Origin: a virus
Virus record (IMG/VR): IMGVR_UViG_3300042287_000745
Coordinates: 1-64,000 of that record
Length of the DNA stretch: 64,000 nucleotides
Reading direction: 5' to 3' (one strand)
Shown: one piece after another, positions 61,169 through 61,240 of the stretch
Numbering within the stretch: position 1 is the stretch's first letter
Layout: each line of letters opens with the position of its first letter
The notes under the pieces: generated by a model
What the model was told of the DNA's origin: nothing
The model's input: the letters and a program-made list of their open reading frames with translations, nothing else
Database searches by the model: none
Program-made: the position numbers and the translations under genes

Positions 61169-61240
61169 ATGTGGACAACACCATCAGCAATTGATTTGCG
61201 TTTCGGGTTCGAAATCACAATGTACATTGCAAATAGGTAA
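61169..61240 (+). CDS. pqqA: Coenzyme PQQ precursor peptide PqqA (23 aa, absent from the ORF track)
   Basis: Translates [23 protein letters not shown] with the invariant ExxxY and the W..P...LR.GFE.T.Y pattern; AGGAG RBS. Confidence 0.93.
   Translation: [23 protein letters not shown]

Follow-up and report, generated by a model that had tools for sequence, protein, structure and literature searches.

The stretch of DNA analyzed here (the window) comprises positions 1 to 64,000 of IMG/VR virus record IMGVR_UViG_3300042287_000745, a 74,735-bp contig with 34.6% GC and an estimated completeness of 41%. On its plus strand, between the replication genes of a T4-like phage, lies a 23-codon open reading frame (ORF) that is a genuine phage pqqA, the gene for the precursor peptide of the cofactor pyrroloquinoline quinone (PQQ). 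We consider it probable that this gene is expressed and that its product feeds the PQQ enzymes of the host, sustaining PQQ-dependent respiration. One PqqA molecule is consumed for each PQQ formed, its Glu and Tyr being cross-linked and excised, and PQQ dehydrogenases are periplasmic enzymes that feed the respiratory chain. Coordinates are collected in Table 1; L numbers designate loci and X numbers sequencing runs.

Identity of the phage pqqA gene

The gene had first been proposed from the sequence alone (the original prediction), as a short ORF with a strong ribosome-binding site that gene calling had missed. The proposed coordinates proved exact, with an AGGAG site 6 nucleotides (nt) before the ATG. 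Both curated profile models, a search with which had been named as a check, recognize the translated peptide well above their cut-offs: PF08042, the Pfam PqqA family, gives 40.8 bits (cut-off, 21.1; E = 2e-10), and the NCBIfam equivalog TIGR02107 gives 38.8 bits (cut-off, 20). Because a six-frame search of the whole 74.7-kb contig returned this ORF as its single PqqA match (E = 1.6e-10), the match is far beyond chance. No exact copy of the 23-residue peptide occurs in a collection of some 15 billion predicted proteins, which fits the claim that gene callers miss pqqA.

Direct translation gives Glu15-Ile-Thr-Met-Tyr19, the Glu-X3-Tyr pair of PqqA, whose Glu and Tyr are cross-linked by PqqE (Barr et al. 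2016, as cited in PMC7678222 and PMC9851590). With 23 residues, the peptide falls within the usual length of PqqA (about 20 to 40 residues). W2, P5, R11, and G13, positions of the N-terminal recognition part conserved in peptides that PqqD is known to bind, are all present, the invariant W, P, R, G, E, T, and Y positions of the family are kept, and each residue from W2 onward is seen at the matching position of bacterial Burkholderiales peptides. Phages also encode mimics of host factors, and a peptide of this kind might act as a decoy or competitor that occupies host PqqD/PqqE or a PQQ-linked regulator and thereby shuts down or redirects PQQ synthesis. Nothing specific favors such a role, apart perhaps from an N terminus that reads MW instead of the M-x-W of Burkholderiales peptides. 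That missing residue between Met and Trp is, however, the only departure from the bacterial peptides; Glu15, Tyr19, and every family-invariant position are intact, whereas loss of the reactive pair would be expected of a decoy, and most viral copies are sequence-identical to chromosomal copies of small (1.3-Mb) betaproteobacterial genomes. We therefore regard a decoy as very unlikely.

Phage context of pqqA

Pfam searches place the gp45 sliding clamp, the gp44 and gp62 clamp loader, and RegA upstream of pqqA and Hsp20 downstream of it, with a family B DNA polymerase beyond hsp20 at positions 66373-67665 of the contig. Given these phage genes on both flanks, we read the region as an accessory island between regA and gene 43 in a T4-like replication module. 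By gp44, the nearest cultured relative is Methylophilales phage Melnitz (60.9%), followed by a Stenotrophomonas phage, cyanomyophages, and a pelagimyophage. No tRNAs were found in the window.

At least half of positions 60000-63000 is represented in 22 lake or freshwater metagenome runs, and mismatch-free contigs from two runs link pqqA to both flanks (X10 record 6, 61088-61476; X17 records 12 and 13, 61004-61181 and 61167-61734), so pqqA is not an assembly artifact. Together with the Pfam assignments on either side, these bridging contigs from independent metagenomes bear out the phage origin that had been claimed for the gene. An assembly chimera or bacterial contamination might be suspected, since some "phage" records are bacterial (the Acinetobacter phage MD-2021a records, see below) and pqqA contigs of other organisms pile up at the pqqA position; with the X10 and X17 contigs bridging both flanks free of mismatches, the 22 freshwater or lake runs, and a gene order common to 12 T4-like contigs, we give this explanation next to no credence. 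The pqqA contigs of other organisms in lake run X17, one of which has an MKWE-type start, were also considered as a link to the host and were rejected because they show co-occurrence only.

The original prediction had noted that no pqqB-E genes lie nearby. For part of the pathway this stands and can be extended: PqqD, radical SAM (PF04055), and PQQ-dependent dehydrogenase (PF13360, PF01011) were not found on the 74.7-kb contig, the PqqB and PqqC families not having been searched separately. Linkage to pqqBCDE is not strictly defining for pqqA, and bacteria carry 3 to 6 pqqA copies per genome, most of them outside the operon.

Distribution among phages and selection on the gene

Viral (IMG/VR) and bacterial sets of pqqA genes were collected by degenerate DNA pattern scans on conserved residues; the resulting counts are lower bounds, and the sets are unranked. 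At least 120 IMG/VR viral contigs carry a pqqA of 23 to 25 codons. Among the viral matches listed, 119 are ORFs of the same length, with 22 codons from Trp to the stop and the ATG 1 to 3 codons before the Trp, and start, frame, and stop are kept in all 119. The viral matches listed also include 12 T4-like loci with the order gp45-gp44-gp62-regA-pqqA/hsp20-gp43, as in the window. All 12 of these relatives have an AGGAG-type site (AGGAG or AAGGAG) 6 to 8 nt before the pqqA ATG, and most have a GC hairpin and a T run directly after the stop.

A tblastn search of phage records, likewise proposed as a check, was positive. Among GenBank phages, pqqA was found in Methylophilaceae phage P19250A; in Methylophilales phages Venkman, MEP301, MEP401, and MEP402; in four Melnitz isolates; and in a Caudoviricetes record from Manatee Spring, with no annotation at the pqqA position in most of the records matched. 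In the Melnitz genome (MZ577097.1, 76140-76205; L256:5001-5066, plus strand) the pqqA-like ORF is unannotated, and the sole coding sequence (CDS) there is an opposite-strand hypothetical protein, beside a tRNA-Leu. Two records named Acinetobacter phage MD-2021a were rejected as instances of phage pqqA and were not counted, since in the pqqA region, with its pqqBCDE genes, they look like bacterial chromosome; in one of them, CAKLQF020000010.1 (L257), ppk, pqqB-E, and a dipeptidase gene surround pqqA.

Among the 119 viral copies of equal length, 111 different nucleotide sequences encode only 57 peptides, and viral pqqA is under purifying selection. Diversity at the three codon positions is 0.15, 0.11, and 0.41. 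The mean pairwise ratio of nonsynonymous to synonymous differences per site (pN/pS) is 0.22, a value biased by the pattern-based collection; on the 11 codons left free by the search pattern it is 0.36, a value free of that bias, with synonymous sites near saturation and pairs that are not independent. The Glu-X3-Tyr columns are invariant in the 111 distinct viral sequences, but the search pattern required them. Compared with its nearest bacterial copies, the window pqqA shows 82 to 85% nucleotide identity, a pS of about 0.5 (0.48), and a pN of 0.06, which makes it neither a fresh transfer nor a site of DNA-level homology. A variant of this phage from RNA run X24 has two differences inside pqqA, both synonymous.

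These observations bear on whether pqqA might be a neutral passenger, that is, a host cassette picked up in a hyperplastic region and still intact but of no benefit to the phage. Between regA and gene 43 the island is variable, pqqA standing before or after hsp20 among relatives, and many other viral copies retain host-type promoter/operator motifs and terminators, both of which would suit a passenger. We nevertheless judge it unlikely, given the retention of pqqA in at least 120 viral contigs of several phage types at a pN/pS of 0.22 to 0.36, the largely synonymous divergence of the window copy from the nearest bacterial copies (pS, 0.48; pN, 0.06), its phage-type signals (late-promoter consensus and AT-rich codons) where a sigma-54-like host promoter might have stood, and the persistence of pqqA in some relatives despite being split by a group I intron.

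Two further features recur around pqqA in other genomes. In eight related viral contigs, a group I intron of about 270 to 330 nt splits pqqA after codon 13 (…MRFG / FEVTMYVMNR); RF00028 scores 66.1 bits at the L299 intron and 65.0 bits at that of L300 (gathering score, 50). A palindromic motif, CATGAAAATCATG / TAATGATTTTCATTA, with a TATAAT box after it, lies about 60 to 90 nt 5' of pqqA. The presence of the CATGAAAATCATG motif at chromosomal and at many phage copies suggests that whole host cassettes may have been captured, operator included. The window pqqA has no CATGAAAATCATG-like motif, and other Burkholderiales pqqA genes have a sigma-54-like TGGCA-N7-TTGC upstream.

Peptide type and candidate hosts

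The ending of the peptide had been said to resemble that of Burkholderiales peptides, and the genome data agree. The 15-residue C-terminal tail of the phage PqqA, searched in back-translated form, is identical in at least 120 genomes (one genome per species), and the tail carriers among the matches listed are almost all Burkholderiales/Betaproteobacteria (Burkholderia, Paraburkholderia, Comamonas, Polaromonas, Hydrogenophaga, Oxalobacteraceae, Methyloversatilis, and others). A few tail-carrying metagenome-assembled genomes (MAGs) are labeled Bifidobacterium, and we take them to be mislabeled. The last 19 residues are identical in four freshwater betaproteobacterial genomes (L148, L212, L215, and L223), which include a Zwartia sp., a Chesapeake Bay Burkholderiaceae MAG, a betaproteobacterial MAG, and a 3.0-Mb genome labeled "Candidatus Methylopumilus." In L215, pqqA heads a pqqB-C-D-E operon (TIGR02108, TIGR02111, TIGR03859, and TIGR02109, respectively), and in the other three genomes the sequence after pqqA begins like pqqB. 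A GSDH-family sugar dehydrogenase is encoded beside the pqq operon in two of the four candidate host genomes.

The majority viral type (…EMRFGFEVTMYVMNK) is identical to multi-copy peptides of 4 of the 401 Burkholderiales genomes sampled; two of these four genomes are only 1.3 Mb in size, and no other PqqA type was found in the four. Because it is this majority type, and not the type in the window, that matches the streamlined methylotroph group, the host of the present phage probably lies outside that group, which is a lead from a 23-residue peptide and not a host assignment. A freshwater betaproteobacterium, of Burkholderiales as GTDB defines that order, is the probable host, and it need not be a methylotroph.

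Presence in RNA libraries

About 5% of the sampled words of positions 60000-63000 were recovered in two freshwater (lake) metatranscriptome runs, both belonging to one study. The only contigs that match this 3-kb stretch at 95% or better cover 61176-61436 (3 differences) and 61102-61480 (14 differences, with an adapter end), and a weaker piece matches 61472-61668 at about 92%. For gp62, regA, and the body of hsp20, the RNA-library contigs yielded nothing but one 34-nt fragment; we did not take the uncovered parts of the stretch as evidence of silence. The contigs fit an abundant RNA that spans pqqA and the leader that follows it.

Signals and RNA elements flanking pqqA

The original prediction had placed pqqA downstream of a late-promoter consensus, and the octamer TATAAATA, the T4 late-promoter consensus, is indeed found 117 nt before the ATG. 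The window holds 6 copies of TATAAATA where dinucleotide shuffles predict 17.4, so that the octamer is depleted; on the gene map, each of the 6 precedes a gene start by at most about 120 nt. Such a pattern is as expected of real T4-type late promoters, and we consider the copy at pqqA a putative one. A scan for sigma-70 promoters and terminators performed at chance level and gave no plus-strand promoter before pqqA. The perfect palindrome TGTAAAATATATTTTACA downstream of the late-promoter consensus is presumed to be a candidate hairpin or protein-binding site.

An RNA motif precedes pqqA in many phages, ending 31 to 52 nt before the gene. Its parts are P0, an outer helix with about 5 bp; an internal loop with conserved UCAAG/UGAUC bases; P1, a 6-bp inner helix; and a variable loop. 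No Rfam family matched the motif (Rfam 15). Across eleven viral loci, 90% of cells pair and 7 of the 11 pairs change on both sides. The covariation score was reached by none of 500 shuffles, pairing collapses to 29 to 50% when the partner is shifted by 1 to 3 columns, and RNAalifold on its own predicts P1 together with an outer helix. A sequence-only pattern scan of IMG/VR returned 38 contigs, in every one of which all five P1 pairs are intact; several of the P1 pairs are G-U, which would be A-C on the other strand, and this suggests an RNA on the pqqA sense strand. Downstream of the 38 matches, 26 have an intact pqqA 31 to 42 nt later, 8 have an intron-split pqqA, and 4 run into a contig edge. 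Each of five larger phage contigs has a single copy of the motif, located at pqqA. A model of the motif (R1) detected it before none of the bacterial pqqA genes searched; in 198 loci, the only members that R1 recovered were those of its training set.

R1 was built without the window copy and was run against both strands of the window with filters off. Its best match in the 64 kb, a marginal one, falls just upstream of pqqA, at 61083-61131 (17.4 bits; E = 0.06), with a match elsewhere at 17.1 bits; both helices are present at 61083-61131, and the internal-loop bases UCAAG/UGAUC are not kept. L084, the relative closest to the window in layout, has TATAAATA, the motif, pqqA, and hsp20, in that order. 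The leader RNA might act as a switch that regulates pqqA in response to a metabolite or protein.

The GC-richer stretch that follows pqqA contains four blocks, CTCGGGATGGGAA, CACCTTAGGA, TGCCTTCGGGGTA, and AACTCGCTTAATAGGAG, that recur in relatives. The last, AACTCGCTTAATAGGAG, stands directly before hsp20 or orf98-hsp20 in seven relatives, wherever pqqA sits, and the other blocks recur in L030, L047, L074, L075, and L109. Since AACTCGCTTAATAGGAG is conserved independently of the position of pqqA, we read this stretch as a leader of the hsp20 genes. In one relative, the corresponding position directly before hsp20 matches the ROSE_3 RNA thermometer (RF02523; L105:1445-1510, plus strand; 54.3 bits against a gathering score of 43). 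Rfam gave no match in the window at the gathering threshold, nor any around pqqA at E values up to 10 (ROSE_3 included), and the window and the L105 ROSE_3 region have only the AACTCGCTTAATAGGAG end in common. Predicted folds of 61238-61400 (z, 0.6) and 61053-61400 (z, 0.0) are no more stable than those of shuffles, so thermodynamics by itself lends no support to structure there.

Structured, conserved RNA elements thus flank pqqA, and RNA-library contigs span both pqqA and the hsp20 leader, as one might expect if the pqqA stretch acted at the RNA or DNA level, either as part of the hsp20 leader RNA or as an attachment or recombination site matching host pqqA. We find this highly improbable, however. 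Conservation of the hsp20 leader does not depend on the position of pqqA, the start, frame, and stop are kept in 119 of 119 copies, and the differences from host copies at 82 to 85% identity are mostly synonymous, which argues for selection at the protein level. On account of this identity, the synonymous nature of the differences, and a contig of a T4-like phage with no integrase context, an attP or integration-site reading was rejected.

Table 1. Features of the pqqA region and related loci (window coordinates unless a locus is named)
Feature	Location	Strand	Remarks
pqqA CDS	61169-61240	+	ATG at 61169, TAA at 61238-61240; 23 codons plus stop, 72 nt
Shine-Dalgarno site AGGAG	61158-61162	+	6 nt 5' of the pqqA ATG
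regA (T4 translational repressor)	60610-61053	+	PF01818, 155 bits; upstream neighbor of pqqA
hsp20	61706-62227	+	PF00011, 61 bits; downstream neighbor of pqqA
T4-type late-promoter consensus TATAAATA	61045-61052	+	Overlaps the stop codon of regA; 117 nt 5' of the pqqA start codon; consensus match only
All TATAAATA copies	17495, 25029, 27833, 33638, 43807, 61045	+	All on the coding strand
Perfect 18-nt palindrome TGTAAAATATATTTTACA	61063-61080	+	Between late-promoter consensus and candidate leader motif; start of the presumed 5' untranslated region
Possible divergent leader-motif copy	61083-61131	+	P0 GATC/GATC, P1 ATTGAA/TTCAAT; top R1 match
GC-richer noncoding stretch	61241-61405	+	Read as belonging, as leader, to the orf98-hsp20 genes and not to pqqA
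Leader motif loci	L036, L039, L040, L046, L051, L079, L084, L085, L087, L105, L108, L274-L308		For example, L105:3028-3076, +
pqqA between regA and hsp20, or (L084) just before hsp20	L030, L040, L047, L074, L075, L084, L100, L109
pqqA just after hsp20	L046, L087, L102, L105
Intron-split pqqA	L278, L287, L290, L295, L298, L299, L300, L305		For example, L299:2034-2301, -; L300:834-1099, -
CATGAAAATCATG/TAATGATTTTCATTA motif carriers	Viral, e.g., L030, L049, L053, L074, L109; bacterial, L122, L130, L248, L249, L255

Comparison with known systems

The concept of a viral pqqA is already known, and the present gene adds a further well-documented case. PqqA was described in T4-like, 35% GC phages of Lake Baikal with predicted Methylophilaceae hosts, and the same role was proposed for it (population VP_266; Coutinho et al. 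2020, Microbiome 8:163, PMC7678222). Like those phages, the present one is a freshwater T4-like phage of about 35% GC (here 34.6%) with a stand-alone PqqA, lacking pqqB-E, that is read as an auxiliary metabolic gene. Unlike the Baikal contigs, which carry methanol dehydrogenase, the present 74.7-kb contig yielded none. The peptide of the present phage is of a non-Methylophilaceae Burkholderiales type. Cultured phages of Methylophilales (OM43/LD28) likewise have a 23-codon pqqA (61 to 65% identity by tblastn) that is either unannotated or overlain by a wrong-strand CDS. Their peptides differ from the 15-residue-tail type of the window, as judged by that identity, and in Melnitz pqqA sits beside a tRNA-Leu, before baseplate genes. 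A literature search combining pqqA, phage, and Methylophilales returned nothing relevant; in the Melnitz paper, PQQ appears solely as a supplement of the medium, and a paper on mining of ribosomally synthesized and posttranslationally modified peptides (RiPPs) mentions PqqA only in the context of coexpression with defense.

The chromosomal Burkholderiales PqqA, which heads pqqABCDE, shares with the phage peptide the 15-residue tail, the length class, and the Glu-X3-Tyr pair. The chromosomal gene differs in its M-x-W start (24 residues), sigma-54-like promoter, and adjacent pqqB, whereas the phage copy has an MW start (23 residues), AT-rich codons, a late-promoter consensus, and no pqqB-E found on the contig. 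A closer parallel in organization is offered by the stand-alone pqqA genes of methylotrophic Betaproteobacteria, which are monocistronic and off-operon, number 3 to 6 per genome, and have their own promoter and terminator; they differ from the window copy in being chromosomal and in having a CATGAAAATCATG-like motif upstream, which the window copy lacks. Five pqqA copies have been described in one methylotroph (PMC9851590). Such stand-alone bacterial copies show an orphan pqqA to be a normal means of raising precursor supply. The novelty of the present case is modest and consists of a peptide of non-Methylophilaceae Burkholderiales type, a late-promoter consensus instead of a host-type cassette, and candidate hosts in which the detectable PQQ enzymes are sugar dehydrogenases and not methanol dehydrogenases.

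Proposed role of phage PqqA

In the explanation that we favor, a lytic T4-like myovirus of lake water would carry just the consumable precursor, placed in the island between regA and the DNA polymerase gene. With its strong ribosome-binding site and late-promoter consensus, the gene would yield extra PqqA late in infection, and the peptide would be handed to host PqqD, PqqE, PqqB, and PqqC for conversion to PQQ. Synthesis of PQQ, the activity of periplasmic PQQ-dependent dehydrogenases, and the supply of energy could then continue during the shut-off of host transcription. This is the role that the original prediction had suggested, with PqqA as the limiting substrate and continued periplasmic dehydrogenase respiration as the presumed benefit.

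Several points weigh against this explanation. Translation of the gene, acceptance of its product by the host enzymes, a limiting supply of precursor, and a benefit to the phage are all steps that we infer; the pointers to translation and conversion to PQQ are indirect (the strong ribosome-binding site, purifying selection, and the RNA-library contigs). PqqA may or may not be rate limiting in a given host, and gains from overexpression of pqq genes are reported to be limited (engineering literature quoted in PMC9851590). In the four candidate host MAGs, methanol/ethanol-type PQQ dehydrogenase falls below the cut-off (TIGR03075; best score, 25 bits versus 480), an absence that MAGs do not prove, and in candidate hosts with only GSDH-family enzymes the energetic payoff is less obvious than in methylotrophs. 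The RNA-library contigs all derive from one study, reveal neither the strand nor the ends or level of a transcript, and may stem from DNA carry-over. Finally, with the contig at 41% of estimated completeness, the absence of pqqB-E and PQQ-enzyme genes holds for the contig and not for the whole phage.

Two further readings are put forward only tentatively and are doubtful: that the host is a non-methylotrophic member of the freshwater Burkholderiales with sugar-type PQQ dehydrogenases, and that pqqA is gated by a structured 5' leader RNA.

Implications for phage and host biology

The presence of pqqA in at least 120 viral contigs and in cultured OM43/LD28 phages, together with the absence of the present peptide from the 15-billion-protein collection, indicates that standard pipelines systematically miss the gene, so counts of viral metabolic genes in lakes and oceans underestimate PQQ-linked functions. 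The C-terminal tail of PqqA may also serve as a cheap host marker that separates Methylophilaceae-type from other Burkholderiales-type peptides. A phage that carries only a consumable cofactor precursor and leaves the enzymes to its host would have an economical way to sustain host energy metabolism, and if the host of the present phage is indeed not a methylotroph, supply of the PQQ precursor by phages would be a general strategy, not limited to those that infect methanol oxidizers.

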